Below, piece by piece: positions 2 to 21,151 of a DNA stretch of 22,874 bases (positions are counted from its first letter, which is position 1; the number at the start of each line of letters is the position of its first letter). Under the pieces are notes generated by a model. That model searched no databases and was not told the DNA's origin. It worked only from the letters and a program-made list of their open reading frames with translations. The position numbers and the translations under genes were made by a program. Origin of the DNA: a virus (Duplodnaviria; Heunggongvirae; Uroviricota; Caudoviricetes); the IMG/VR virus record IMGVR_UViG_3300029305_007758; one strand, written 5' to 3'.

Positions 2-2428
2 TTTTGTGATATCACGCATGAATTTGGTCATTACGTTTAAGTTTTTGAGTCCTAAAAAGTCGAACTTCAAAAATCCTAACTGACCTTCTGCCTGAATCAT
101 ATCTGCCTGAATTGCAAGTTTTTCCTCTTCATTGGTGCAAATCAGCGGAATATAATCTTCCACACGACCATTTTGAATGGCGATAATGCCTGCTGCATGC
201 TGTCCATATGAAGTAATGTATCCTTCAATCATCTTTGCGTATTCAAAAATACTCATTGCAACTTTATCTTTACTGAATTTTTCAACAATAATGTCTTCAA
301 TTTCAATAAGATGTGAACATTCACGCGCATAACCACGTAAGGATGCACCTGTTGATGCATATGTTCTCGTATCTTCTCCTCTCTCCATCGCATAAAGCTT
401 TGGCGCATATGTTAATGCATTAAGAGGGCCCATGATAGACTTTGTCATGATACCGGCAATTGCCTGTTCACCATATGTTTCTGTGACGTAGTTAATGGCA
501 AACTCACGAGCGAAGCCACTAAAATCAGAATCCACATCAGGCATGGATACTCTTTCTGGGTTTAAGAAACGTTCAAATAATAGATCCAAGTCAATCGGAT
601 CAAGTTCTGTAATACCTGCAAGATAGCAAACTAATGAACCTGCTGCCGATCCACGACCCGGACCAATGTCCATTGCGTTTTCTCTTGCAGCTTTACATTT
701 ACCAAGTACGTCAGCAATGAATAAATGGTACGAAGCAAATCCCATGTTACGAATTGTTTCTAATTCATAATCAAGACGCTTCTGTAACTTATTGTTCCAT
801 TTACTACCGTATCGCATTTCGATACCTGCTTCCGGACATGCAATTTCAATTACTTTGCCATCCATTGTTTCAACAGTTACAAAACCATTAATTGTAAGTT
901 CTCTTAACTTTGCATCAGCATCCTTAAATTCTGGATAATGCTGATTCGGCTTTACCATTTCTTCAGTGATACCTTTTTTCGGATTAGCCTTTGTTTCAGG
1001 CAATCTTGCGTTACATTTCGCAACTATTTCAGCAATGTTTGAAATTGCTTCAACAACCATGTCATCTGGTAGAATCTGAGACAACATTTCTGCTTTCTCA
1101 ATATTTGTTTTGAAATATAACTCGGAATCACTATCAATTGGTCCAGACCACTGTCCTGTTTTGATTCTGGTACAGTTTTTAAGAAGCATTCTTTTCTTTA
1201 AGTCTTCCGGACGTGCCATGTGGTTATCATTTGTTGCAACAAGTTTGATACCATTTGCACGTGCAAGTTTCGCAATCACCGGATAAAGTTCTGCTTCTAA
1301 CGCATCACCATGATACTGAACCTCTGCATAAAAATTACCTGTTCCAAAAATACTTTCATACAACTTAATTGTTTCAGTTGTTTCCATAAGTATTCTTGCT
1401 TCAGATTTTTTCGCTGCATTTAAAGCAGTAATCTTATCAAGATTTGATTCGATTGTCTGTGCTTTTGGTTTGTGTTTTGTTAAAAGCTTTTTATCTTCAG
1501 AAATTGTTGCTTTAAACTCCTGAATCTGTTTCTTTAACTCTGCAACACGTTCTTTTGCATCTTTTGTTTCTGCCATTTCAAGTGCTAATTTTTCTTCCAG
1601 ATAGGTACGAATTGCTTCATCTGGTTCAGCTTTGATATTGGCTTTTGTTTCCTTAAATTTCTTGCCAGCCTTTTCTGCTAATGCTTCAATTTCGGCATTT
1701 AATTCATCGATGCGAGCGTTTACTTTTGCAACCTTTTCTCTTGCCGCAAAATATTCTGCTGGCAATAAACTTTTACTTTTTTCGATACGTTTCTCGATTT
1801 TTTCGATTTCGTGATCGATTTTGTTGTTAAAAGCAAGTGGTGTTGCAAGTACACCACCGATACAAGCACTCATTGCAACAACATTGCCCGAATCCACTGC
1901 ATCTGGTCCAAAACATTCGTATAACAATCGTTCTGTACCAATTGGTCTACCCTTATCGTCTATGTTTCTGTTTGTTGCAGATACATAGCGAGCAATCTGT
2001 TTCATACCTTTGTAATTTTTTGCAATAAGTACTAAATGCTGCGGAATCTCTTTACCCTTAAATACTTCTGCAACAAGTGCATCTGTTTCAGGGTTATCAG
2101 ATTCCATGTCATAGTAACCCATTGTTGTTACATAAGCTTCTACGCCAAGAATTGGTTTGATAGGTGCCTGTTCTTTTGGTAACTTCTTGTGGTCTGATGT
2201 TTCATCACCGTTACAATAGTTGTAAAAATCGAGCCAGTTTACACAGTTACCATGGTCTGTGACAGCACATGCTACTGCACCTTTCTCGATTGCTACATTA
2301 ACTAATTCTGTTACTGACTGTGCACCGTCACCGATACCTATATTTGCATATGCATCTGTGTGACAATGAAGTTCAGTATTCGTTTCGATTGGTAATGATT
2401 CAATCGTTTTTCTTAAGTCTTCTGTCAT
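2..2428 (-). CDS. dnaE: DNA polymerase III alpha subunit (DnaE-type), 3' end runs off the window (~809 aa visible); missing from the ORF track
   Basis: Hand translation from ATG 2428 (RBS AGGAGG at 2435-2440): PHP motifs LHCHT, TDHG, GVEAY, QHLVL, SAC, TNDNH; palm motifs GPGRGSAAGSLVCY, FERFLNPERVSMPDVDSDF, HAAG, KFDFLGL; frame open to the window edge. Confidence 0.97.
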   Translation of the reverse strand, partial: MTEDLRKTIESLPIETNTELHCHTDAYANIGIGDGAQSVTELVNVAIEKGAVACAVTDHGNCVNWLDFYNYCNGDETSDHKKLPKEQAPIKPILGVEAYVTTMGYYDMESDNPETDALVAEVFKGKEIPQHLVLIAKNYKGMKQIARYVSATNRNIDDKGRPIGTERLLYECFGPDAVDSGNVVAMSACIGGVLATPLAFNNKIDHEIEKIEKRIEKSKSLLPAEYFAAREKVAKVNARIDELNAEIEALAEKAGKKFKETKANIKAEPDEAIRTYLEEKLALEMAETKDAKERVAELKKQIQEFKATISEDKKLLTKHKPKAQTIESNLDKITALNAAKKSEARILMETTETIKLYESIFGTGNFYAEVQYHGDALEAELYPVIAKLARANGIKLVATNDNHMARPEDLKKRMLLKNCTRIKTGQWSGPIDSDSELYFKTNIEKAEMLSQILPDDMVVEAISNIAEIVAKCNARLPETKANPKKGITEEMVKPNQHYPEFKDADAKLRELTINGFVTVETMDGKVIEIACPEAGIEMRYGSKWNNKLQKRLDYELETIRNMGFASYHLFIADVLGKCKAARENAMDIGPGRGSAAGSLVCYLAGITELDPIDLDLLFERFLNPERVSMPDVDSDFSGFAREFAINYVTETYGEQAIAGIMTKSIMGPLNALTYAPKLYAMERGEDTRTYASTGASLRGYARECSHLIEIEDIIVEKFSKDKVAMSIFEYAKMIEGYITSYGQHAAGIIAIQNGRVEDYIPLICTNEEEKLAIQADMIQAEGQLGFLKFDFLGLKNLNVMTKFMRDITK

Positions 2429-4072: not shown

Positions 4073-7000
4073 TTATTCACAATGACCATAAATCCATGTA
4101 TCAAGATTTACATTAGCATTATCACAAACTCTGCTCCAGTTAGTTGTTGAGCCGTTCCAACAATGTGTTGTGTATGGATGGCCATTACATGAAACTCCAA
4201 TAACAAGCGTTCCTGTAGAATCCATTAATGTTTGATAATTATTACATGAACCTGTTGCGGCTGGTGTAATGTCATAGTGCCAATCCCAATGAGTATGCCC
4301 ATTACATGTTGCTGAAATAAATATACCAGATCGACCATTGTATGTTACTTTATTAGTATTATACCAATTCCATTTACTTGCTGATAATGCATCACCATTT
4401 GCAATAGAAATATTGGCATTTTCTAACAATGTTGTAACTCTATCTGTTGTTGTGTCAAATCCATTTGCTGCTAATAATTCAAGAATTTCATTCAGTTCAT
4501 CTTTTGCGTCATTCACATTTTTAATCTTTTGATTTAATGAATAATATTCACTCTTTGATGAAACGTTTGTATATGTACTAACAGCGTAATCAAGTACATT
4601 TATTTTTGATTCAAGGTTATCAATAGCTTTCTTTCTTTTAACAGCCCATTCATCCCAAGTTGATAAATCACTATTTGCACTATAAACCTCACTCATTTTT
4701 GAGCGTGTGTTATTGTTTAAATAATCATAAGCTGCATATTGAGATACTTGACTGCTAAATGTTTTTTGGAACAATACACTTGGCCAACGACCAACGAATG
4801 TATAATACAAATCTTTGTAAGCATCTAAATATGAATCATATTTTTCGTATACATAATCTTTTGCAACAACATCACCGGTTACACTATCATATGTATATTT
4901 TGTTTCTACGGCTCCATTTTCATTTGTTGTGTATTTTTCAAAAACATTATAATATAACAATGATTCTTCTGTGCCGCGATTCTTACTTACTACATAAGCA
5001 TGTGTATAAGCAGTTGATGGTAAAATACCATACTGATCATAGTAACTTAATGTTACATCTAACATTTCTTTCTTAAATGTTTTGCTATGAGCGTCTGTTG
5101 CAATATAAACATTACCATCAAATAACTCTTCTTCATAAAAACCAGAATAGTCAACAGTAATTGTGTTTCCAAAGATATCTTCGTATTCAGTGTATCCTGT
5201 TTCCCATTGTGTACCACGTAGCAAATAAATAAATGCTTTAATATTTGTATCGGTCCACCCACTGAATACACCAGATTGTCCATAAACAGAGTCAATCACA
5301 TATCCGTTTGGACGAACTGTGCCAACAATGTTGTTTGCATCTAAGTTGTCTAAATCATATTTACGAATAGAACCTGTTGAATTATCATAATCTGAACCAG
5401 ACAGGTTCAAATTTCTTGAATAAGCAACAAACTTATTATCACCAATACAAAGCATAGGCACTAATTCTGTTTCAATTATTTTATATCCCACACTACCCAC
5501 TTCATAATCTTTTGGTTCAAAATCTGGTACAACTAAATTACTTTGAACATTTGTTGAATCCGGAACATAAAATGCAATATCTCCCACTTTAAAAGTAAAT
5601 ATAGATGGGGCTTCTTCGTTATACATATGTGCAAGTTCTGAATATACACTTGGTGTTTTTACCCCATGTTTTGCTAATACATAACGGATAAAATCATAAG
5701 ATGAAATCTTATCATAAGACGAAATTTCATTTTCATCCAAAGTATGATTTTTTACATTTGATGTTGTGTCAAAATGTCCTGTTGTAAAGAATGATGTTTC
5801 TGCCATTTCAGCATTAACTGTGACATTAATTGCTGTTTCAAAACCATCTTCGTTCTTTGTTTCTTCATTGAAAATGACATCCGCTGTGTTTGAAAACAGT
5901 AAAATGATATTATTACTATCATAAAATGGTTTGAATGGATCAAACTCATCTACAATTGCATCAATTTCTACAGCACCTTCTACATCAAGATTTGTAGATG
6001 TTGAGCCAGGAATATTTGGTCGCCACACTACTGTATTTAAAGCATTGTAACTATGATTACCTGCTACGGTTGGTACAGCACTACGTAAACTATTTGTTGA
6101 ACCATTTGAATAAACATAATGTTTTCCATTTGCATTGTAAGCAAAAATTTCTGTATGTCCGGACCAACCATAATTTCCTTCGTCATCATATTTATAAGAA
6201 CCATACGTAATGATATCGCCTTCTTGCAACACATTCCATCCGTTCCAACTATATTTTGTAAAACCGGATATACTTGGCGCATTTAATAAGCTTTGTGAAT
6301 TAAAGTTTGTACCAGACGCTGCTGCACCATTTAACCATAGACAAGCAGATACAAATCCGGAACAATCTGTTCTTACCTGATAAACGGTACCATTTACATT
6401 AATTGGAAGATATGTTGTTTGATTATATGTTGCCTGTGTTTGCGCAATAAGTGTTTTAATAGTTCTTACAACATTCATCCAGTCACTATTTACAACTGTA
6501 CCTTTTGGGCAATTTGTTGCATCAATATTTACTTGCCCACCAGAACTACCTGTTGTAACTCCTGCCATTGCTTCATATGCTAACATCTCATCATACTGAA
6601 TATCTACATAAATGTGACATGCATGGCCAACTGATCCGTCCGCATAATAAAAATCATACGGCTCTGTTGTTACAATATGTGTTTGGTCATATAGTTTATC
6701 AACCCAACTTTGTAATTCTGCGTCTGTTACAGTATCAAAGTCAAAATCGCACATAACTTCCACTGCACAAAAGATTTCTTTGTAATTTTCTAACGAACCG
6801 CTCGGATATTGTGTGTCAGTTGTATCATATTGTTTACGAATCTCTGCAATTTCATCCAACATATCATTGTGACTCGTATTTAGTGTTACCATAATTTTCT
6901 CGCCACGATCTTGCAGTTGCGATGACCATTCAGATTCGATGTCCTCACTTATAAATGATTGATTAGCTTGATTTTCATTGATAACATTTCCTAAGAAAAA

Positions 7001-8533
7001 GTTACTTGCTTTATAATTATAATTATACAATGTTTGAATGAAAAGGTCTAAAACTGTAATTATAAGACTTGCTAGTAAAAGAAATACAACCGCAAACATA
7101 AGAATTTTTGCTACTGTTGCGAAAATTTTTGCAACACCTTCTGCAAATTTTTGAAATACCGTTTGCATAGTTTTAATTGCTGTTTTTTCTGCAAATTTTC
7201 CCGTAACTTTTTTTACAGAAGATCCCAATTTTGTTCCAATAAGTTTGTTTTTCAGTTTACCTGTAACCTTTTTTCGTAGCACAGTGTTAATTTCATTTTT
7301 TGTCAACACATGGTCTTTGAGCAATTGACCCCGAAGTTCTAAAATGTCTAATGCGCCTTTTGCAATAGAACTGTTTTTATGAGAATCTATAAATTTCGTC
7401 AAACTTTTAATTGCAAATTTATTTGTATCTTCCGATAATTTTCGTCGCAACAATCTTGATGCAGAATCTTTTCCCCATGGACGAACTTTTGTAGTTCCCC
7501 ATGTCTTTGAAAATGCTTCTGTAGCTTGGTTAAACGCTAAATCCGTTTTTACTCCAGATTTTATAAGTACAGTTGCTTCTTTTTGGATTTTAAAAGTTTT
7601 ATACATTTTAAATCCTGCGGCACTTGAGATATTTCCAGTAAATCGACCGATTGCCATGGCACCGCCCATACCAGCTTCAAGAATGTTCATACCTTGCATA
7701 ACATCAGCACCTTGAAGTGGTGAAGATGCAAGACGAAACATTTGGCGACCCCAAGTTTTTGGATTTGAAAACTTTGCTGATTTGCCTGCTGTGTTTTTAA
7801 GGCGTTCTGTAATCTCTGTACCCTTTTGAAGAAGTGGCAATTCTTTTTTCGCATCAGAAAGCGCTTGTAATTTCAAATCATATATATCTTTTGTTATAAT
7901 GCCATTTTCAAAAGCAACACGAGCTTGATCAAATTCTACTGTTAATAATTCGACTTGCTTTTGTTGCTCTTTTAAACAAGTTGCATAAATTCGATTTAAT
8001 TCGCCAGCATCAACTTTTAAATCAATAAACGAAAATGAATCATTCGCATTTTTTGTAATTATAACACCCTTTTTTTGAAAACTTTCCGGAAGATTTTCAC
8101 AATTCGTTATTTTTACCGTCGTAGACAGACCACCATCTGTATTAAATGTTATATTTGGATTTTTACTTTCTTCTAAAATAACATTTTGCTTATTAAAATA
8201 TTCCTGTAACGCTCTTGGTGTTTGAAGGTGTTCTGTATTTTTAACTAATTCTTTGTATTGTTGTAAATTATAAGCACTTGCACCAGAGTAAATTGCAGAT
8301 CCTACTCCTGTTCCAACTGGTGTCGCAACCCTTGTGGTAGTGCTAATAACTTTCCCAGTTTCTCTATCAGTTGTTTCATTTACACTCTGACGTTCTGCTT
8401 GACGGCTAATTGATGATGATGTTTGTTCTACCATACCTTTTGCAGTAGATACTGTATCAAAACGTTTAAAGTTTCGAAGCATATCCATTCCACAACCCGA
8501 CACACTCATCATTGATTGATTTATTTTTGCCAT
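4073..8533 (-). CDS. Large membrane-anchored cell-wall hydrolase (1486 aa): NlpC/P60-like domain plus degenerate lytic domains; VirB1-like conjugative hydrolase or phage tail lysin
   Basis: Basic N-terminal region; hydrophobic helix ILMFAVVFLLLASLIITVLDLFI; RTDCSGFVSACL...LQEGDII...GHTEIF Cys/His motifs; RBS GAAAGGAG. Confidence 0.72.
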   Translation of the reverse strand: MAKINQSMMSVSGCGMDMLRNFKRFDTVSTAKGMVEQTSSSISRQAERQSVNETTDRETGKVISTTTRVATPVGTGVGSAIYSGASAYNLQQYKELVKNTEHLQTPRALQEYFNKQNVILEESKNPNITFNTDGGLSTTVKITNCENLPESFQKKGVIITKNANDSFSFIDLKVDAGELNRIYATCLKEQQKQVELLTVEFDQARVAFENGIITKDIYDLKLQALSDAKKELPLLQKGTEITERLKNTAGKSAKFSNPKTWGRQMFRLASSPLQGADVMQGMNILEAGMGGAMAIGRFTGNISSAAGFKMYKTFKIQKEATVLIKSGVKTDLAFNQATEAFSKTWGTTKVRPWGKDSASRLLRRKLSEDTNKFAIKSLTKFIDSHKNSSIAKGALDILELRGQLLKDHVLTKNEINTVLRKKVTGKLKNKLIGTKLGSSVKKVTGKFAEKTAIKTMQTVFQKFAEGVAKIFATVAKILMFAVVFLLLASLIITVLDLFIQTLYNYNYKASNFFLGNVINENQANQSFISEDIESEWSSQLQDRGEKIMVTLNTSHNDMLDEIAEIRKQYDTTDTQYPSGSLENYKEIFCAVEVMCDFDFDTVTDAELQSWVDKLYDQTHIVTTEPYDFYYADGSVGHACHIYVDIQYDEMLAYEAMAGVTTGSSGGQVNIDATNCPKGTVVNSDWMNVVRTIKTLIAQTQATYNQTTYLPINVNGTVYQVRTDCSGFVSACLWLNGAAASGTNFNSQSLLNAPSISGFTKYSWNGWNVLQEGDIITYGSYKYDDEGNYGWSGHTEIFAYNANGKHYVYSNGSTNSLRSAVPTVAGNHSYNALNTVVWRPNIPGSTSTNLDVEGAVEIDAIVDEFDPFKPFYDSNNIILLFSNTADVIFNEETKNEDGFETAINVTVNAEMAETSFFTTGHFDTTSNVKNHTLDENEISSYDKISSYDFIRYVLAKHGVKTPSVYSELAHMYNEEAPSIFTFKVGDIAFYVPDSTNVQSNLVVPDFEPKDYEVGSVGYKIIETELVPMLCIGDNKFVAYSRNLNLSGSDYDNSTGSIRKYDLDNLDANNIVGTVRPNGYVIDSVYGQSGVFSGWTDTNIKAFIYLLRGTQWETGYTEYEDIFGNTITVDYSGFYEEELFDGNVYIATDAHSKTFKKEMLDVTLSYYDQYGILPSTAYTHAYVVSKNRGTEESLLYYNVFEKYTTNENGAVETKYTYDSVTGDVVAKDYVYEKYDSYLDAYKDLYYTFVGRWPSVLFQKTFSSQVSQYAAYDYLNNNTRSKMSEVYSANSDLSTWDEWAVKRKKAIDNLESKINVLDYAVSTYTNVSSKSEYYSLNQKIKNVNDAKDELNEILELLAANGFDTTTDRVTTLLENANISIANGDALSASKWNWYNTNKVTYNGRSGIFISATCNGHTHWDWHYDITPAATGSCNNYQTLMDSTGTLVIGVSCNGHPYTTHCWNGSTTNWSRVCDNANVNLDTWIYGHCE

Positions 8534-10493: not shown

Positions 10494-12707
10494 TTATGCC
10501 ACAAGTCGTTCCATCAATCGTGTATTACGTTTTGCGTCATCTGTATTATTGATACAATCTATCAAAGCGTCGTCGACATAAACAATTGTTACCATTTCTC
10601 TTGCACGTGTAACTGCCGTATACAATAATGAACGATGCATCATATTTTTTGCTGCTTCTGGTAAGAAAATAATAATAATTGGATTTTCAGAACCTTGTGA
10701 CTTATGAATTGTAAATGAGTATGCATGTATCATGTCATGAATTGCTGCATGTGGTAATACCTTTGATTCGTTGCTAAAACCATCACTGACTACGATTTCG
10801 TTGTTATCAATGTAATCAATGATACAAATTTCTCCATTTACATACAACGGCTCTGCTTCGTCCTCATCTTCAGCTGTAATATATTGATTTCTTAAAAACA
10901 TTACCTTATCTCCCGGCTGAATATCACTTGAAGCATTTTCATCTTTGTGTACAAGTGTTTTATGTACAAATTCATTTACCGCATACGTGCCTACACTGCC
11001 TTTCTTTGATGGTTGAATAACCTGAGTTTTAAACGGATCATCGTTATCATAATATTTTGTTATCAAATTCTTTAATGTTTCAAATCCATTTTCATCATCT
11101 TCACATTTGATAACATGAAAATCTTTATCATTTGCAATTGGCATCTGGCCATCTAAGATAAGGTTTGCATTGTCAACAATTGTACCTTCATCCTTTTGTC
11201 TAAAATTTTCAGTCAATCTGTAAACAGGAAACATATTTGATGCAATAATATCATGTAAACAATTTCCTGCGCCAACAGATGGTAACTGAAACTCATCTCC
11301 TACAAACAAAATTCGTGTTGTATCTTTGAGCGCAAATAATAACATTTCAAGCTTCATTGCATCTACCATTGACATTTCATCAACAATAAGAAAATCAATA
11401 TCTAATGGATTTGCAGCATTATATGTTAGAAGATTTCCTGTTTCAAAAGGCTTTGAGCCAACCAATTTATCAATTGTATAAGCCTTATATTCACCATCAA
11501 GTGATTCTGACAAACGTTTTGCTGCACGACCGGTTGGTGCAACGAATTTTACATTTGCATGCGGATAATATTTCTTGTAATATTCAACAATACCTTTAAT
11601 TGTTGACGTTTTACCGGTGCCTGGCCCGCCCGTCAACACTACAACTCCACCATCCTCTAACATGTAAAATGAATGTCTCTGATCTTTTCCGTAACGAACT
11701 CGAAATCTTTTTTCAATATCAACAATTTCTTCTATTTTAACTGCAATATTGATTTTTGCAGTTTGTGAAATTACTTTTAATCGATTTGCAATGTTAATTT
11801 CAGCATTGTATAGCTTCTTCAATGCAATCATTCCTGTATTAATGTCTAAATAAACTCTTGGATTATTTATAATTGCGTCAGAAATACAAATGGCAGGAAT
11901 TACAGTTGCATAGACAGATCTTACAGAAAACTTATTCAATTCTTTTGCCAATTCATCTGCAAAAGCATAAGTATGTCCATCACTTCCTTGCTTTTCTAAA
12001 TAAAACTCAACAAGACCATTGATGCGATCTTTATTTAATGCAGGAAGATTAATCGCATATGCAACGGCATCAGCAAGTCTCATGCTAATACCAAACTGTA
12101 AAAAAACTCTGTATGGATTTTGTTTGATAAATTTAACTGCATCCTGTTTATATGCATCATAAATATCAAGAATCATTTTGTAATCAATATTATATGGTGA
12201 TAAAAACTGTTCCAATTCTGTTAATGCAGTTTCTGTATCAAAAATTGCTAATACAAATTTATTGATAGAATTTAAATTCCATGTTGGAAAGTCTTTTGAT
12301 AATGATTGTTGCATTGTAAAATGGTCCATACAAACAATATCTTTTCCATACAGTTCTACCATTTGTTCAATTTTTCTTTGTCCAATACCTGTGTTTTTTG
12401 ATTTTGTTAACGATGAATAATAATCAATTGTTGTTTTCTCATTCATCCAAACAAAATTACACTGTGTACAGTTAAAACCATCTTCATCCCAAACACCTTC
12501 TACTTCAACCGGCATGTTAACAACCAGACCGGTTCTAAAAGAACGACAGCAAACAGTATTATCTGCTTCACGTTTGACATTTTTAGCTGGGGTATCAATA
12601 TAAAAATACGTTTTCCCATTTGTATCAACTTTTGTGGAGATTGATTTTACAATGCCACGATATTTAATTAAACAATCAGCATTAATTGAATTTGTTACAA
12701 TATCCAT
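10494..12707 (-). CDS. recD2: RecD2-like SF1B 5'-3' DNA helicase (start moved from 12749 to 12707)
   Basis: GGPGTGKT, APTGRAAKRL, IVDEMSMVD, VGDEFQLPSVGAG, RLTENFRQ, TIHKSQGSE, YTAVTRAR; RBS AGAGGTG before ATG 12707. Confidence 0.92.
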   Translation of the reverse strand: MDIVTNSINADCLIKYRGIVKSISTKVDTNGKTYFYIDTPAKNVKREADNTVCCRSFRTGLVVNMPVEVEGVWDEDGFNCTQCNFVWMNEKTTIDYYSSLTKSKNTGIGQRKIEQMVELYGKDIVCMDHFTMQQSLSKDFPTWNLNSINKFVLAIFDTETALTELEQFLSPYNIDYKMILDIYDAYKQDAVKFIKQNPYRVFLQFGISMRLADAVAYAINLPALNKDRINGLVEFYLEKQGSDGHTYAFADELAKELNKFSVRSVYATVIPAICISDAIINNPRVYLDINTGMIALKKLYNAEINIANRLKVISQTAKINIAVKIEEIVDIEKRFRVRYGKDQRHSFYMLEDGGVVVLTGGPGTGKTSTIKGIVEYYKKYYPHANVKFVAPTGRAAKRLSESLDGEYKAYTIDKLVGSKPFETGNLLTYNAANPLDIDFLIVDEMSMVDAMKLEMLLFALKDTTRILFVGDEFQLPSVGAGNCLHDIIASNMFPVYRLTENFRQKDEGTIVDNANLILDGQMPIANDKDFHVIKCEDDENGFETLKNLITKYYDNDDPFKTQVIQPSKKGSVGTYAVNEFVHKTLVHKDENASSDIQPGDKVMFLRNQYITAEDEDEAEPLYVNGEICIIDYIDNNEIVVSDGFSNESKVLPHAAIHDMIHAYSFTIHKSQGSENPIIIIFLPEAAKNMMHRSLLYTAVTRAREMVTIVYVDDALIDCINNTDDAKRNTRLMERLVA

Positions 12708-12741: not shown

Positions 12742-12763
12742 AGGGTCAAAAATGCCTAAAACG
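12742..12763 (-). promoter_or_regulatory. Class II bipartite motif CGTTT-N11-GACCCT upstream of recD2
   Basis: Fixed 11-nt spacer; 35 nt before ATG 12707. Confidence 0.55.
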
Positions 12764-12766
12764 TAG

Positions 12767-12806
12767 AAAAAAAAAGAAAGAGAATCTTCACATCCTCTTC
12801 CTTTTT
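12767..12806 (-). terminator. Intrinsic terminator after the epsilon-like gene
   Basis: Minus-strand AGGAAGAGGAT/ATTCTCTTTCT followed by a T run. Confidence 0.65.
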
Positions 12807-12826
12807 CTTTATTGCAAAACAATGTA

Positions 12827-13651
12827 TCAGCCTTCTGCCAACTTTATCAAATCCCAAATCGAGTCACATTTTTTATGATTCAATACATATGTTGTAAATG
12901 CGTCCATGTCAACCATATCAAAGAATCCCGGTGTCTTTTCTTCCCAAAAACCTGTGTAACAATTAAGTCTCACATCACCACATGGAGTGTTAAAAAAGAT
13001 ATACCGTCTATCGTAAGCAATTTTCCAATAACGAGCTTTTGTAACAGTAGTCTGCTCTGTTCCAGTTGGTACCAATGAGTATAACTTATTGAATAAGTCT
13101 ACGTACCCTTTTAATCCCTGGTCCGATTTGATTTTGAATCGAGTTGCTAATTCGACATAACCATATCCAACATTTTTTTTCTGGAATACTAAAGATTTCG
13201 CCATCTGTGTGATATTCAATACACAATTTACAGATAATTTTTTGTCGACGCGCATTAATTCATTCATTAAAAATGGACCAAGAAAATCTTTTGTATTAAA
13301 GCCTGCAACAGCAATTGGTTCGTTACCCAAAAATTCTGCCACCTTTTTAAATACTGTTTCAGAATCTGGCGCTTTTTCAATCATTTCATTTGTGATACAA
13401 TTAATTGCAGAAACTTCATTTGGAATTAATCTGTCCGGATTTACTAAAGTTTGATACGAATCCTGTAATACAAATTTATCATCCTGTAGCTGCACTTTTG
13501 CAATTGCAATTCCTACGACACGGTCATTAATTGGGTCTAAACCGGTTGTATCAATTTTAATTAAATATAATGGTTGCCATTTTACCTTTTGAATATTAGA
13601 ACGCCATGTAGATCGTTCATTTGTTTTATACATTCTTGTTTCTGTTGCCAT
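12827..13651 (-). CDS. DnaQ/epsilon-like DEDD exonuclease fold, catalytic residues apparently degenerate
   Basis: IKIDTTGLDPINDRVV, TLVNPDRLIP...ITNEMIEKAP, VAGFNTKDFL align with the epsilon fold, but DxE is KxD, HNxxFD is FNTKDFL, and no Exo III H...D is visible. Confidence 0.82.
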   Translation of the reverse strand: MATETRMYKTNERSTWRSNIQKVKWQPLYLIKIDTTGLDPINDRVVGIAIAKVQLQDDKFVLQDSYQTLVNPDRLIPNEVSAINCITNEMIEKAPDSETVFKKVAEFLGNEPIAVAGFNTKDFLGPFLMNELMRVDKKLSVNCVLNITQMAKSLVFQKKNVGYGYVELATRFKIKSDQGLKGYVDLFNKLYSLVPTGTEQTTVTKARYWKIAYDRRYIFFNTPCGDVRLNCYTGFWEEKTPGFFDMVDMDAFTTYVLNHKKCDSIWDLIKLAEG

Positions 13652-13702: not shown

Positions 13703-13736
13703 AGGTTCATAATTTATATAAACGTAGTAAAAGTTT
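13703..13736 (-). promoter_or_regulatory. Class II motif AAACTTTTACTACGTTT-N11-GAACCT upstream of the epsilon-like gene
   Basis: 17-nt upstream block identical to the copy at 18312-18328. Confidence 0.6.
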
Positions 13737-16420: not shown

Positions 16421-17437
16421 TTATGCTGCAATTTTAATACGTAACACATCTTTACGGCCACACATTGCTTTTAAAAAACCAATTGCATTTACAAATGAAC
16501 TTTCTTCCGGAATGATGATGTCTTCGCCAAATACTTCTTTTACTTCATTTTCAATCATGTTGATTGTTCCACCAATGAATACAAACTGTGTGTAATCAAC
16601 CGGCCACTGTGCCGCACGACAATCATTCATAATGTCTGTAACATAAGTGTTAATATATTTATCAACGATATTTTTTGAATCTTTTTCAATCTGTAAATTT
16701 GGTCTCGTTGGTTTCAAACAACGGTTATCACCGACACGTTTTAATAATTCCATTACATTCTTTTCATTGACACGAGAAAATGCTGCAGATAATTTCTGTG
16801 CCAATCCTGAAATCAACGCTTTTGCACCTTTATCTGTTGTAACAGATGTAAGTGAGTCAATTTCACCTGCATCAAACATTGTCATGTTTACATTTAAGAA
16901 ACCAATATCTACAACACCAACGGTACCGGTTGGGTCTACACCATTTGCAAAAATCGCACCATATGTTTCCGGATATACATATCTGCCAACAATTTTGAAT
17001 TTCTTTGTTACAGGTTCAGATTCACCTGTTAATTTGTATCTCATTTCAATTTCGTCTTCCGGCAAAATAAATTCACGATATTTGTTACGAATCGCTACTT
17101 CCTGATAATCTTTTACCGGAATGCCGATTGCTACATAAACTTCATCGACTTCATCTTCTGAACATTCTCTTGCAATCGCAAATAATGTACTAAGTTTATG
17201 AACAAATGTCTTCTTTGAAGAAATTAATTCTGTACCAATTGTTGCTGCATGGCCAACCTTATACGTATGGCCTTTCATTTCAACAAGATATGTATCTTTC
17301 CCCGGGTCTGTATCTTCAAATGTACCTTCTTCATATTTTGTTTCAAAACTTGCTGTTTTGACGGTTTCTGTTGCAGCATCGTATACTGCTACTTTTGTGT
17401 GTCCTTTACCTGAATCAACTGCAATGTATCTTTTCAT
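16421..17437 (-). CDS. ParM/StbA/Alp-family actin-like segregation ATPase
   Basis: IAVDSGKGHTK (phosphate 1), YVYPETYGA, VGVVDIGFLNVN (phosphate 2), FVFIGGT (adenosine); 338 aa; RBS AAGGAG. Confidence 0.88.
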   Translation of the reverse strand: MKRYIAVDSGKGHTKVAVYDAATETVKTASFETKYEEGTFEDTDPGKDTYLVEMKGHTYKVGHAATIGTELISSKKTFVHKLSTLFAIARECSEDEVDEVYVAIGIPVKDYQEVAIRNKYREFILPEDEIEMRYKLTGESEPVTKKFKIVGRYVYPETYGAIFANGVDPTGTVGVVDIGFLNVNMTMFDAGEIDSLTSVTTDKGAKALISGLAQKLSAAFSRVNEKNVMELLKRVGDNRCLKPTRPNLQIEKDSKNIVDKYINTYVTDIMNDCRAAQWPVDYTQFVFIGGTINMIENEVKEVFGEDIIIPEESSFVNAIGFLKAMCGRKDVLRIKIAA

Positions 17438-17451
17438 ATTTGTCTCCTTAT

Positions 17452-17826
17452 TTACGCATCCATCTTATCAATTAATGCAAAAAATGGATCTTCTTCTGCT
17501 ACTGTTTTATTTGTTTCAACTAACACTTTTTTTTCTACCTTTTTAGGTTCAGTTTTCTTTGGCGTTGTTTTTGCCGGTTCCAAAACTGGAGCTGACCCCA
17601 CTTTGGTTTTTTCAGTTTCTGTCACAATTGCTTGTTCTGTTACAACTGGAATAACCTGTGCTGTTTGCATCGGAATTGGAATACTCTGAATATTTGTACC
17701 AAACCCATTTTGAATTTCAAGCATTGCCTGTCCACGAAACTGAATATATTCCTGTGGTGTCAATTTTCGTCCGATCAATGTTTCATAATCAGATATCATT
17801 TCTCTTGTCAATTCTGTGATTGTCAT
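17452..17826 (-). CDS. Hypothetical protein, candidate adaptor for the actin-like ATPase
   Basis: Directly upstream of the ParM-like gene; helical N-terminus, Lys/Thr/Pro/Glu-rich linker, C-terminal DPFFALIDKMDA; start overlaps the upstream stop (ATGA/GTGA-type 4-nt overlap). Confidence 0.7.
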   Translation of the reverse strand: MTITELTREMISDYETLIGRKLTPQEYIQFRGQAMLEIQNGFGTNIQSIPIPMQTAQVIPVVTEQAIVTETEKTKVGSAPVLEPAKTTPKKTEPKKVEKKVLVETNKTVAEEDPFFALIDKMDA

Positions 17827-18239
17827 GTTACTTTTGCCTCTTTCTTTACTCGCTTTGGTTTATGAATGTTAAAATATTTTGAAATAGCTTGACATTCAAT
17901 ATCCAAAGTAATTCCATTTCCCAATGTTATCTGTTGCTTCTGAGGTGTCTGAATTTCATATAAAAAACCACTTTCTACTTTTGTAACCTCAAGCACCGGA
18001 CCATTAATGAGTAGATATGCATTACGACCGTCAACAATTGACATTGTAATAGACTGGAGCAACTCTTTTTCGATATGCTTTGTTGATATAATTTTGATTG
18101 TGTCCGCTGTAAGCTGTGACAAAATTGCACTTTCGTCTACAAGACTTAATGTTTCGTTTTCTTTCTGTAACGGATTCTTTGGAACATTTAAATAAAATGT
18201 TGCCATACAATACGTTACTGGCATGTTTTTCTTTGCCAT
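17823..18239 (-). CDS. Hypothetical protein (138 aa), first gene of the three-gene parM-like operon
   Basis: RBS AGAGGTG upstream; its TGA overlaps the next ATG at 17823-17826. Confidence 0.75.
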   Translation of the reverse strand: MAKKNMPVTYCMATFYLNVPKNPLQKENETLSLVDESAILSQLTADTIKIISTKHIEKELLQSITMSIVDGRNAYLLINGPVLEVTKVESGFLYEIQTPQKQQITLGNGITLDIECQAISKYFNIHKPKRVKKEAKVT

Positions 18240-18294
18240 AAATTCGTTTCACCTCTTTGCTTAAAGCCTTATAATTCTTGTTTCTTATCATATA

Positions 18295-18328
18295 AGGTTC
18301 AAAAAATAATGAAACGTAGTAAAAGTTT
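18295..18328 (-). promoter_or_regulatory. Class II motif AAACTTTTACTACGTTT-N11-GAACCT upstream of the parM-like operon
   Basis: Same 17-nt block and spacer as at 13703-13736. Confidence 0.6.
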
Positions 18329-18334
18329 ACGTTT

Positions 18335-18700
18335 TTAAAATTTAATTGTCATTATCGCAAACCATGCAAACGCAATCAGGGCCATTGTAAACAACGGCGT
18401 TCCAATATGATATGTTCTACGACCTAAGTGTTCATTTCTGCTACCATCTTTATTAAACATATTTGTTATACTTGTTTCAGATTTTTTCTGTTTTCTTATA
18501 TTCACAAATGTAATTGCTACATAAAGTGCATTTATAATTAATAACGTTGCAAAAATCCACTCATTGTTCTGTAAATATGTAAGTATGTTTAACCATGTGT
18601 TTTCACTTGTTAAATTATGAACATTATCACGAATGCCGGATGTTAATGGTGTGATAATTTCTGTAATTTCTGTATTTGTTACAATTAAATTTGTTTTCAT
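18335..18700 (-). CDS. Small membrane protein with two predicted transmembrane helices
   Basis: Hydrophobic stretches WIFATLLIINALYVAITFV and LFTMALIAFAWFAIMTI; RBS AAGGAG. Confidence 0.72.
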   Translation of the reverse strand: MKTNLIVTNTEITEIITPLTSGIRDNVHNLTSENTWLNILTYLQNNEWIFATLLIINALYVAITFVNIRKQKKSETSITNMFNKDGSRNEHLGRRTYHIGTPLFTMALIAFAWFAIMTIKF

Positions 18701-18715
18701 GTTTTTCTCCTTTTC

Positions 18716-18751
18716 AAAAAGAAGAGAGCCACAAATTTTGCCGCTCTCTCC
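18716..18751 (-). terminator. Intrinsic terminator after the 439-aa gene
   Basis: Minus-strand GAGAGAGCGGC/GTGGCTCTCTTC followed by TTTTT. Confidence 0.7.
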
Positions 18752-18765
18752 TATATTCGATTTAA

Positions 18766-20085
18766 TTATTCTTCCGAATCAGTTGTTTCTTCTGGCGAAT
18801 GTTTCTCAAATCCTCTTTCCATGAAACACTGCGGACATTCTACAAAATGTGGACCCGGTGCTAAGAATGTAATATCTTCTTCCCATTCATTTGCACAAAA
18901 TGCACATCCCATCTTTACAACTTGATGTACAACCTGTTTCTGAAACTCATTTGTTGCAATATCAAGATTATACAAACGTTCATATAATTCTGTGGAATAA
19001 TCATTTGAAATCTCCATATACATCGAACACCATTGTGTCTTAAATTGATTTGTTTTTAATGTATCAATCATGGTGTTCTTAATATTTGTCCACTGCGAAT
19101 TACATGTACTGGTAATATATTCGATTGTTTTTTCATATTGCTTACGAAGTTCATTTAACAATTCCCAATTTCTTTCGTCTTCTTCTTTTGTTAAATGTTT
19201 TTTAATAATAAGATTTGCATCTTTTTTCTCTTTTAAAACAGGAGCTGGTGGTTCATTTGATTCTGTTTCTTTATTTTCTTCTACAGGCTTTGTATCTACA
19301 GGTTTTGTATTTACAGGTTCTTTTGAAGTCATTCTGTTACGAAATCCTTGTAACATAGCACCTGCTGTTCCATGTTTTGGTTTTGTATCTTCTGTTACCG
19401 TTGCATTTGTTTCAGAAGTTACAACATCTTCTGTTTTTATATGTTTTGTTTCAGAAGTTCCTGTAACAGTAATTGGTTCCACTTCTTTTGTTACTATATC
19501 TTTTGTTTCATCGATCCATGCAAAGTCAATATCCGGATTATATGTATCAGTATCACAATTTTCATAATGTGCAATTAATGTGTTGTTTACAAATTGTTCT
19601 ACGGATACGGTTTTTAATATTTCTTCAATCTTTTTGCCAATATCAGAATTCTGTAACAATTCATTTGTTAATCCTTCAAAACCAAGCATATTCACAATTT
19701 CTGTAAAATCAAATGCTGGGTCCTTATATAATCCAGTTACATCAAATTTGTTACAATCTTTTGACTCGCATGATTTAAAGAAATAAAGACTACCCGGCTG
19801 TCTGATTACATCTTTATCATTTTCAAAATAATATGTTTGTGGAGATGTGGTATTATTCTTATCCCGACATACTTTCTCATTTAACATTAATCCGTTTTCA
19901 GCAAAAAACATTGTCTCCTTTTCAACGCAAAGTTCAATGTCTTTGTCAGAGCCTGTTAATATGATATTTTGTACCAAACCTTTACCGCTACGAATTGTGT
20001 ACACTTTATTAAATGCTGCCAATTGAGGACATACATCTTTACACCAGTCAGCAAGTATTACTGATTCTGTCATTTTGTCTCTCAT
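18766..20085 (-). CDS. Hypothetical protein with low-complexity linker and C-terminal CxxC-CxxC zinc ribbon
   Basis: 439-aa ORF; T/E/K/P-rich middle; CAFC...CPQC near the C-terminus. Confidence 0.8.
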   Translation of the reverse strand: MRDKMTESVILADWCKDVCPQLAAFNKVYTIRSGKGLVQNIILTGSDKDIELCVEKETMFFAENGLMLNEKVCRDKNNTTSPQTYYFENDKDVIRQPGSLYFFKSCESKDCNKFDVTGLYKDPAFDFTEIVNMLGFEGLTNELLQNSDIGKKIEEILKTVSVEQFVNNTLIAHYENCDTDTYNPDIDFAWIDETKDIVTKEVEPITVTGTSETKHIKTEDVVTSETNATVTEDTKPKHGTAGAMLQGFRNRMTSKEPVNTKPVDTKPVEENKETESNEPPAPVLKEKKDANLIIKKHLTKEEDERNWELLNELRKQYEKTIEYITSTCNSQWTNIKNTMIDTLKTNQFKTQWCSMYMEISNDYSTELYERLYNLDIATNEFQKQVVHQVVKMGCAFCANEWEEDITFLAPGPHFVECPQCFMERGFEKHSPEETTDSEE

Positions 20086-20103
20086 GTTTTTCTACCAACT
20101 TTC

Positions 20104-20304
20104 TTATACGATTTCAAAAATATTATTATCAGCTTCACCAACAGCTTCTAATCCACGAATCGCTGTTTTTGCTGCAGCTTCTGTTTTGTATTCTTTTGCT
20201 TCATCAATATCATATGTGTTTTCAAAATGCCCCATCTGTCTTGAGAATGCTTTTACATATCCTGTTTCGCCACTAATTTTGTTTGTCCATTGAATTTTAC
20301 TCAT
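20104..20304 (-). CDS. Small hypothetical protein (66 aa, MSKIQWTNK...; start moved from 20391)
   Basis: GAAAGGA RBS before ATG 20304; the longer ORF call overlaps the upstream gene and the ACCATATTTA motif. Confidence 0.7.
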   Translation of the reverse strand: MSKIQWTNKISGETGYVKAFSRQMGHFENTYDIDEAKEYKTEAAAKTAIRGLEAVGEADNNIFEIV

Positions 20305-20347
20305 GTTAGTATTTCCTTTCATTTTGTATCTTTTTCTTTTTTCACAA

Positions 20348-20357
20348 TAAATATGGT
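20348..20357 (-). promoter_or_regulatory. Class I motif ACCATATTTA upstream of the 66-aa gene
   Basis: Exact 10-mer 44 nt before ATG 20304. Confidence 0.6.
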
Positions 20358-20365
20358 CAAGAGTT

Positions 20366-21151
20366 TTACAAAGTAAAATCTGTTTCGCCAATAAATGAAA
20401 TCGCTTCTTCTGTCATTGGTTTCTTATGTTCCAATAAATAAAGACTATCTAATGGATGACACATTTCTATATTTGCCTCAGTAGCTAATGTTACAAGATC
20501 AATACACTGATCCATTGTTAATTTGTCACAAGGAATAATGATACGAAATACGCCTTTATCCATAAATACATTGATACTTGACATATCAATGTTCAAATTC
20601 TTTGTTTTCTCATAAAACCATGCAACATTTTTTCCTGCATCAGTCTTCATAGATAAATATGAGATTTGCGCCGGAGTTTCTGTAATGTATGATTTTTCGA
20701 TACAGGTGTCACCTATCTGTATAAAATCCGGGACAGAAACATCATTATCTTTTTCTATTTCGTCAACCTTTGATATAGCATCTTCCATAACTTCTTCCAT
20801 ACATGAGATCAAAAAATTGATTTCTTCACAATATGTAACAGACACACTTGCCACATGCATTGCTTGCTCCACTCTTTCTAAAAGTTCAATTTCTTCATTT
20901 AATGTTTCAGTTGTAGCAAATAATGCTAAAATTAAATCTGTTTCAATCACCTCTGATGTATCTAAAAATAGACACAACTCATCATTTTTTCGAATGTTAA
21001 TGAACTCATGCAATTCATCACTCGATTGATACAACATGTTTAAAAATCGGTCACCATTAAATTCATTAACCGAAAATCCTTTATTTTCAAATTCATTTCT
21101 TGAAATTCGAATCGTAAAATGTTCTCCTGTAAAATCAGTAATATTTGGCAT
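20366..21151 (-). CDS. Acidic 261-aa protein, possibly a MecA-family ClpC adaptor
   Basis: N-terminal FTIRISRNEFENKGFS and C-terminal INVFMDKGVFRIII...LATEA...YLLEHKKPMTEEAI resemble the two MecA domains (by eye); acidic helical linker; upstream AAAGGGAG RBS. Confidence 0.5.
   Translation of the reverse strand: MPNITDFTGEHFTIRISRNEFENKGFSVNEFNGDRFLNMLYQSSDELHEFINIRKNDELCLFLDTSEVIETDLILALFATTETLNEEIELLERVEQAMHVASVSVTYCEEINFLISCMEEVMEDAISKVDEIEKDNDVSVPDFIQIGDTCIEKSYITETPAQISYLSMKTDAGKNVAWFYEKTKNLNIDMSSINVFMDKGVFRIIIPCDKLTMDQCIDLVTLATEANIEMCHPLDSLYLLEHKKPMTEEAISFIGETDFTL

Follow-up and report, generated by a model that had tools for sequence, protein, structure and literature searches.

The window, by which we mean the whole 22,874-nt stretch of DNA analyzed here, carries a co-oriented gene block of a large plasmid-like element. 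It encodes the N-terminal 809 aa of DnaE, a CHC2/DUF3854 primase, proteins of 1486 and 507 aa without Pfam families, a RecD2-type helicase, a PilZ protein, an SF2 helicase, a ParM-like actin, and the C-terminal part of LigA. Between the helicase and PilZ genes lies the ORF under study, which is complete and specifies a 274-aa protein (P0001, identical to P0006 of the public collection) that resembles the epsilon subunit of DNA polymerase III and that we describe as a putative pseudo-exonuclease (Table 1). The 1486-aa protein (4073-8533 of the window) matches no Pfam family at E of 0.001 or better; it has counterparts of 1489 aa in the collinear locus L100, following recD2 and a 489-aa gene, and of 1671 aa in the locus of P0180, from which recD2, a gene for about 500 aa, and a gene for about 1500 aa emerge as a recurrent block. 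Type IV secretion genes (VirB4, PrgI, and coupling protein) are present in related loci, and these loci belong to elements of the same general kind as that of the window. In L091, for example, one of the related human-gut elements, an NAD-salvage cluster at 17271-20749, 7 kb downstream of recD2, encodes an isochorismatase (PncA-like), an NAPRTase, a cytidylyltransferase-like adenylyltransferase, and an NAD synthase.

Table 1. Features of the epsilon-like gene, its downstream neighbor, and dnaE in the window
Feature	Position	Strand	Basis
DnaE, N-terminal 809 aa (context, not a demonstrated partner)	2..2428	-	
RecD2-type SF1B helicase, 737 aa from ATG at 12707 (conserved downstream neighbor)	10494..12707	-	
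Second copy of promoter-like class II motif, before recD2	12742..12763	-	
Terminator-like hairpin and T-run between the epsilon-like gene and recD2	12767..12810	-	
Epsilon-like putative pseudo-exonuclease P0001, complete ORF, 274 aa	12827..13651	-	
C-terminal alpha/beta domain, residues 193-274	12830..13075	-	
DnaQ/DEDDh-fold domain, residues 25-192, catalytically degenerate	13076..13579	-	Pfam and structural model
Lost Exo III site: His loop deleted, Asp replaced by G179 (D177-Q178-G179)	13115..13123	-	
Exo II remnant F123-L124 (canonical F-D)	13280..13285	-	
Exo I remnant K32-I33-D34 (canonical D-x-E)	13550..13558	-	
N-terminal extension, residues 1-24, with clade-specific conserved R6 and Y8	13580..13651	-	
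Promoter-like class II motif CGTTT-N11-GAACCT, 52 nt upstream of the epsilon-like ATG	13703..13724	-	

A preliminary description of this DNA had reported the ORF to be intact, with a motif and a terminator of its own, and both elements are in place. Four copies of the class II motif, CGTTT-N11-GAMCCT, are present in the window against an expectation of 0, and two of them lie in front of the epsilon-like gene and of recD2. Four other genes, namely dnaE and those for the primase, the 507-aa protein, and PilZ, are preceded instead by ACCATATTTA. Because a hairpin separates the epsilon-like gene from recD2 and each has its own promoter-like motif, the two are probably not carried on one transcript in the window. 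The terminator-like region differs in runs X3 and X4, with 3 bases missing at 12767 and 13 bases inserted after 12800. The recD2 ORF as listed starts at a TTG at 12749, and the second motif copy falls inside that extension; the real start is most likely the ATG, given that the database protein P0173 is 737 aa long.

A search against Pfam, one of the checks that had been proposed, placed P0001 among the RNase_T proteins (PF00929, E of 1.2e-12, residues 35-178, 49 bits against a cut-off of 24), and the family profile recognized the RNase H-like exonuclease fold. Many NCBIfam epsilon, PolC, and DEDD models also match, all far below their cut-offs. The catalytic positions are degenerate. At Exo I, phmmer aligned LIKIDTTGLDP of P0001 to VLDFETTGLDP of the T. 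maritima PolC exonuclease domain (2p1j), which puts K32 and D34 where D-x-E is canonical. Exo II is anchored by F123, invariant in 70/70 family members; the residue that follows it is Asp in all 38 members of the active-looking clade described below and L124 in P0001. P0001 has a gap where the H-x4-D motif of Exo III places its His, and G179 occupies the Asp position, which is D in 97% of the active-looking clade. Y183 and N188, which had been considered as replacements for this motif, were rejected when a larger alignment put it in the deleted loop and at G179. The change of DxE to KxD, the loss of the Exo II aspartate, and the absence of the Exo III His and Asp, all read earlier from the letters of this single gene, are therefore borne out by alignment. 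The additional change of DT to NI exists in P0001 (N146-I147) but does not stand as a family trait, since 92% of its clade keeps the Asp; N146 is a private change of P0001.

The predicted structure agrees with the profile matches. In an AlphaFold model of P0001 (m5fed04152f54, pLDDT 86.9), residues 24-196 align by VIA-align to the S. aureus DinG exonuclease domain (8zef) with a Z of 19.4 and an rmsd of 2.3, to 9qrn with a Z of 19.1, and to E. coli epsilon (2gui) with a Z of 17.2; many DEDDh structures score between 15 and 19. The 9qrn entry is titled just "DNA polymerase," and we take it to be a PolC. P0001 thus has the same fold as the exonuclease domains of Pol III epsilon (DnaQ), PolC, and Firmicute DinG and retains T-T-G and G-I-T, but unlike them it lacks four of the five DEDDh residues, the fifth being changed from Glu to Asp, and it has additional sequence at both ends, an N-terminal extension and a C-terminal domain of 82 aa. 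The latter (residues 193-274) is modeled as a four-stranded meander followed by three helices, with a pLDDT of 88. Profile searches assigned it to no Pfam or NCBIfam family, and among 48,161 PDB chains no solved structure matched it with a Z of 5 or more. Its sole match in the ESM Atlas was a 291-aa cluster labeled "3'-5' exonuclease family protein," which is its own family. An extra C-terminal domain of about 90 aa had been noted from the sequence; it is present, although it measures about 82 aa and is not peculiar to P0001, being shared by active-looking relatives.

Relatives of P0001 were collected with a word-indexed search, which gave ten full-length proteins at 36-65% identity, and with an exhaustive search, which gave 73 proteins at E of 1e-10 or better. 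Both the exonuclease fold and the C-terminal domain are present in about 70 proteins of roughly 265-305 aa. A quick IQ-TREE maximum-likelihood run with SH-aLRT support split them, with a support of 100, into a monophyletic clade of 32 representatives that includes P0001 and a sister clade of 38. We call the former the dead clade, as the Exo I and Exo II aspartates are absent in 32/32 representatives, the first Exo I position being K, R, S, N, H, or G. In the sister, active-looking clade, the canonical DEDHD set is present in 36/38, and examples such as P0063 and P0094 have the same length, two-domain architecture, and C-terminal domain as P0001. The C-terminal domain is accordingly a signature of the family as a whole and, because the active-looking clade has it too, is older than the inactivation. 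Exo III H..D is still found in the basal dead-clade members P0029, P0034, and P0043, and the loop is deleted in derived members, indicating that the loss was stepwise and ancient.

Genes of the dead clade appear to be carried on large plasmid-like or conjugative elements of gut Firmicutes. Scans of species genomes returned no relative of P0001, and IMG/VR returned only distant, generic DnaQ relatives, as did the phage and plasmid collections, where the matches were likewise distant. Matches on Enterococcus plasmids were rejected as relatives, the protein there being a different one of 600 aa. Several of the 150 best representatives exceed about 360 aa; the eight of these that we scanned (P0044, P0051, P0058, P0065, P0070, P0072, P0076, and P0086) all carry other domains, and none is fused to a helicase. 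In P0044, which is 1045 aa long, three tandem RNase_T domains are followed by GIY-YIG and UVR motifs.

We then compared the clades position by position, using 26 non-redundant dead-clade members. Conserved in both clades are T35, T36, G37, G85-I86-T87, F123, F127, D146, W209, and T222. The dead clade has lost the catalytic residues together with Y118, R134, K164, and R217, and it has newly conserved R6, Y8, P126, N188, P195, G197, and a loop, E238-x-T240-x-G242-x-F244-D245. R6 (85%) and Y8 (100%) are conserved in the dead clade and in neither case in the active-looking clade, and the loop, W-E-E-x-T-P-G-F-F-D in the C-terminal domain, is likewise specific to the dead clade.

The gene also shows the marks of selection. 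Among close relatives, at dS of 0.05-0.2, dN/dS is 0.01-0.06 in both domains, and it is 0.06 for an 80%-identical pair. Contigs from four other samples differ from the P0001 gene by 13 distinct substitutions, 11 of them synonymous and 2 non-synonymous (D73N and D267N). No indel falls in the ORF in contigs of the window's element; indels fall in the intergenic terminator region. P0001 is thus a conserved putative pseudo-enzyme under strong purifying selection, not a decaying gene. The proposal that a dead enzyme has been kept is supported by the monophyly of the dead clade and by this purifying selection, and the suggested check for conserved substitutions came out in its favor, with the aspartate losses clade-wide and no pseudogene-like decay.

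The same alignment bears on whether P0001 could still be an active nuclease or phosphoesterase with a rebuilt site, either through D34, D122, and D177 or through a one-metal mechanism. Position 34 is acidic in most members, and the closest relatives often have D/E122 and D/E177, as would be expected had the site been rebuilt. D122 and D177 are, however, common among those nearest relatives only: positions 122 and 177 are not conserved across the 26 dead-clade members, position 34 can be E, D, Q, or G and position 32 K, S, N, R, H, or G, and the dead clade has no conserved general base. An alternative acidic site had been named at the outset as the result that would speak against a dead enzyme, and no alternative acidic residue is conserved across those 26 members; we consider a rebuilt site very improbable.

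To look for a conserved partner, we searched all sixteen window proteins with tblastn against fourteen loci carrying dead-clade relatives. A RecD2 orthologue lies directly downstream in all 12 loci that extend in that direction, at 36-42% identity, and in those twelve loci it is the only relative of a window protein besides the epsilon-like gene itself. Within 10 kb, none of the fourteen loci searched, 11 of which have flanking DNA, showed a relative of DnaE, primase, ligase, or ParM. The window helicase belongs to the RecD2 type by its Pfam content (HHH_RecD2 PF14490, 3.2e-15; AAA_30, 2.1e-33; UvrD_C_2, 6.9e-14); its SF1 motor has the Walker A/B motifs, and GPGTGKT, DE, and QGSE are invariant in an alignment of 54 homologues. 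The association also holds when approached from the helicase: in two loci reached from the RecD2 side (helicases 62% and 42% identical), a 273-275-aa RNase_T protein is encoded immediately upstream. In L103, which represents a different dead subclade, an RNase_T gene lies immediately upstream of recD2 with a 49-nt gap.

In total, the gene followed by recD2 occurs in six lineages: the window, the P0175 locus, the P0180 locus, L083 (the contig of P0008), the group of L001, L002, and L085-L092, and L103. Their other flanks vary, with PilZ, T4SS (VirB4)/FEN/LRR, AAA_2 ATPase, or NT5C genes, and upstream of the P0175 pair are a ParM-type actin and an SF2 helicase. As all six come from related element types, the adjacency could partly reflect conserved gene order. 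No RecD2 follows the basal dead-clade members P0029 and P0034, whose neighbors are a ParM-type cluster or other genes, and the one sampled member of the active-looking clade, P0063, has no RecD2 neighbor. The C-terminal domain, which that clade shares, is therefore not RecD2-specific.

Several other neighborhoods were recorded. PilZ was rejected as a conserved partner, the gene for about 214 aa upstream of the homologues being unrelated to the window's PilZ protein. In L101 (581-4822), L102, and L097, dead-clade genes (basal and some derived) are divergent from a ParM-type (ALP_N) partition cluster encoding proteins of 124, 136, 105, and 347 aa, with a UvrD-type helicase beyond the cluster in L101; this cluster resembles the parM cluster located 3 kb upstream in the window. 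In the two loci of P0063 (L098, 3641-5271, and L099, 5240-6870), the exonuclease gene starts 3 nt after the gene for a conserved 252-aa protein of no known family, and a prepilin-peptidase-like gene lies downstream of it. The 252-aa protein could be an alternative partner that serves the active form.

The preliminary description had paired P0001 with the DnaE of the window and had placed proofreading in the PHP domain of that polymerase. Its reading of the PHP site is accurate: equivalents of all nine ligands are present, the motif strings are right, and the ligands are H21, H23, D34, H59, E97, H131, C189, D401, and H403. The motif HHDHEH[C/H]DH has been used as the criterion for calling a PHP domain active (PMC12926913), and the window DnaE reads HHDHEHCDH. 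In this it is like the M. tuberculosis DnaE1 type, whose PHP domain is an active proofreader; it differs from that type by a coiled-coil insert between the Cys and D-x-H ligands. The insert, about 150 aa rich in K, E, and A (1390-1830 of the window, DnaE residues ~200-350), lies inside the PHP domain between C189 and D401-x-H403 and gives weak SMC/Rad50-type matches. Proofreading in the DnaE PHP domain would be consistent with these ligands.

The pairing itself fared less well. As a non-catalytic epsilon-like subunit of the element's DnaE, P0001 would attach to the PHP domain or to the sliding clamp and would stabilize the polymerase while the PHP domain proofreads. E. coli epsilon binds the PHP domain, and structures 5fkv and 5m1s are among the fold matches of P0001; the gene shares a replication block with dnaE, the primase gene, and ligA in the window and in L100, and a complete PHP motif would make an epsilon nuclease redundant. 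Yet 10 kb separate dnaE from the gene, the promoter-like motif before dnaE is of another class, and no relative of DnaE occurs within 10 kb of the gene in the 11 loci with flanking DNA or in the gene lists of P0175, P0180, and L103. A conserved association with DnaE (alpha), as expected of an epsilon subunit, does not emerge from the comparison of gene neighborhoods, and in this P0001 differs from Pol III epsilon. The top fold matches are moreover the DinG and 9qrn exonuclease domains, not epsilon, and with no Pfam or NCBIfam family in the C-terminal region, no known epsilon-type alpha-binding tail was identified. The idea of a DnaE partner is without comparative support, the conserved neighbor of this predicted protein being RecD2, and we regard a role as a DnaE subunit as unlikely.

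We instead favor a reading in which the predicted pseudo-exonuclease assists the element's RecD2 helicase, as an accessory protein or by binding DNA ends, and we would give this reading about an even chance of being correct. In this reading, P0001 descends from a DnaQ/DEDDh 3'-5' exonuclease, keeping its fold and the family-specific C-terminal domain of about 80 aa. The dead clade lost the Exo I and Exo II aspartates first and the His loop later, and strong purifying selection has maintained it since. In active DEDDh enzymes, the T-T-G and G-I-T strand-end elements are located at the substrate site. Their retention with the fold suggests a non-cutting binder of nucleic acid or of 3' ends, and the newly conserved N-terminal R6 and Y8 and C-terminal WEExTPGFFD loop may form new surfaces; from the retained substrate-side elements and these surfaces together, we infer a non-cutting binder working with RecD2. 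Such a binder would assist the product of the adjacent downstream gene, the 5'-3' helicase RecD2, whether as an accessory factor, a loader, or a regulator, in the replication or DNA processing of the element. Both DNA binding by P0001 and its physical or functional coupling to RecD2 are proposed here from conservation, gene order, and the class II motif common to both genes.

Binding could also serve an end independent of RecD2. An anti-host binder of nucleic acids or nucleotides might act as a decoy or cap that shields the 3' ends of the element's DNA against host exonucleases or as a sponge for a defense signal. The gene is carried only on mobile elements, substrate-side elements are kept where catalytic residues are gone, and basal members lack a RecD2 neighbor, all of which would suit such a role. 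The very stable adjacency to recD2 in the derived clade does not, nor do the neighbors, which are replication and partition genes with no recognizable anti-defense genes among them; we judge this role improbable, slightly more so than that of a DnaE subunit.

Partnership with RecD2, as favored here, has partial precedents. Like the pExoDinG-like modules, P0001 would combine a DEDD fold devoid of catalytic activity with coupling to a DNA helicase, although the coupling here is proposed from genes. The dead module of the pExoDinG-like proteins has been proposed to bind single-stranded nucleic acid and to modulate the helicase. Those modules are fused, of the DEDDy type, and joined to an SF2 DinG, whereas P0001 is a separate 274-aa ORF of DEDDh ancestry with an SF1B RecD2 neighbor. 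MrfA-MrfB and ExoDinG of Bacillus likewise associate a helicase with a DnaQ-superfamily protein; their DEDDh exonucleases are active or activatable, unlike P0001, which is without the catalytic residues. P0001 also differs from its active-looking sister clade, in which 36 of 38 keep DEDHD and the sampled member has the 252-aa protein and the prepilin peptidase as neighbors. In the literature searched, we found no description of a dead epsilon-like family that stands alone and is locked to RecD2. Coupling of a pseudo-exonuclease to a helicase is already known; what is new here is a putative pseudo-exonuclease that stands alone, has DEDDh ancestry, lies beside an SF1B helicase, and carries an undescribed C-terminal domain.

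More speculatively, the dead DnaQ-fold protein and RecD2 might form a dedicated two-protein machine in which the former holds or senses a DNA 3' end and loads or gates the 5'-3' helicase, serving the replication or conjugative DNA processing of large gut plasmid-like elements. We put this forward tentatively, as a possibility that is clearly less likely than the general partnership; if true, the machine would correspond to the exonuclease-helicase fusions but with unfused proteins and an SF1B helicase, and an undescribed C-terminal domain would be at its core. For annotation, profile-based labels such as "DNA polymerase III epsilon" or "exonuclease" would wrongly imply that these large gut elements encode a DnaQ proofreader; judged by sequence, the DnaE PHP domain is the one candidate proofreader visible in the window. 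The family is compact (about 280 aa) and has an active sister clade, a confident model, and a candidate partner, which makes the function of a dead proofreader directly testable. Nuclease-derived pseudo-enzymes are a recurring route to nucleic-acid-binding regulators, and the dead clade may be a further instance on the large mobile elements of gut Firmicutes.
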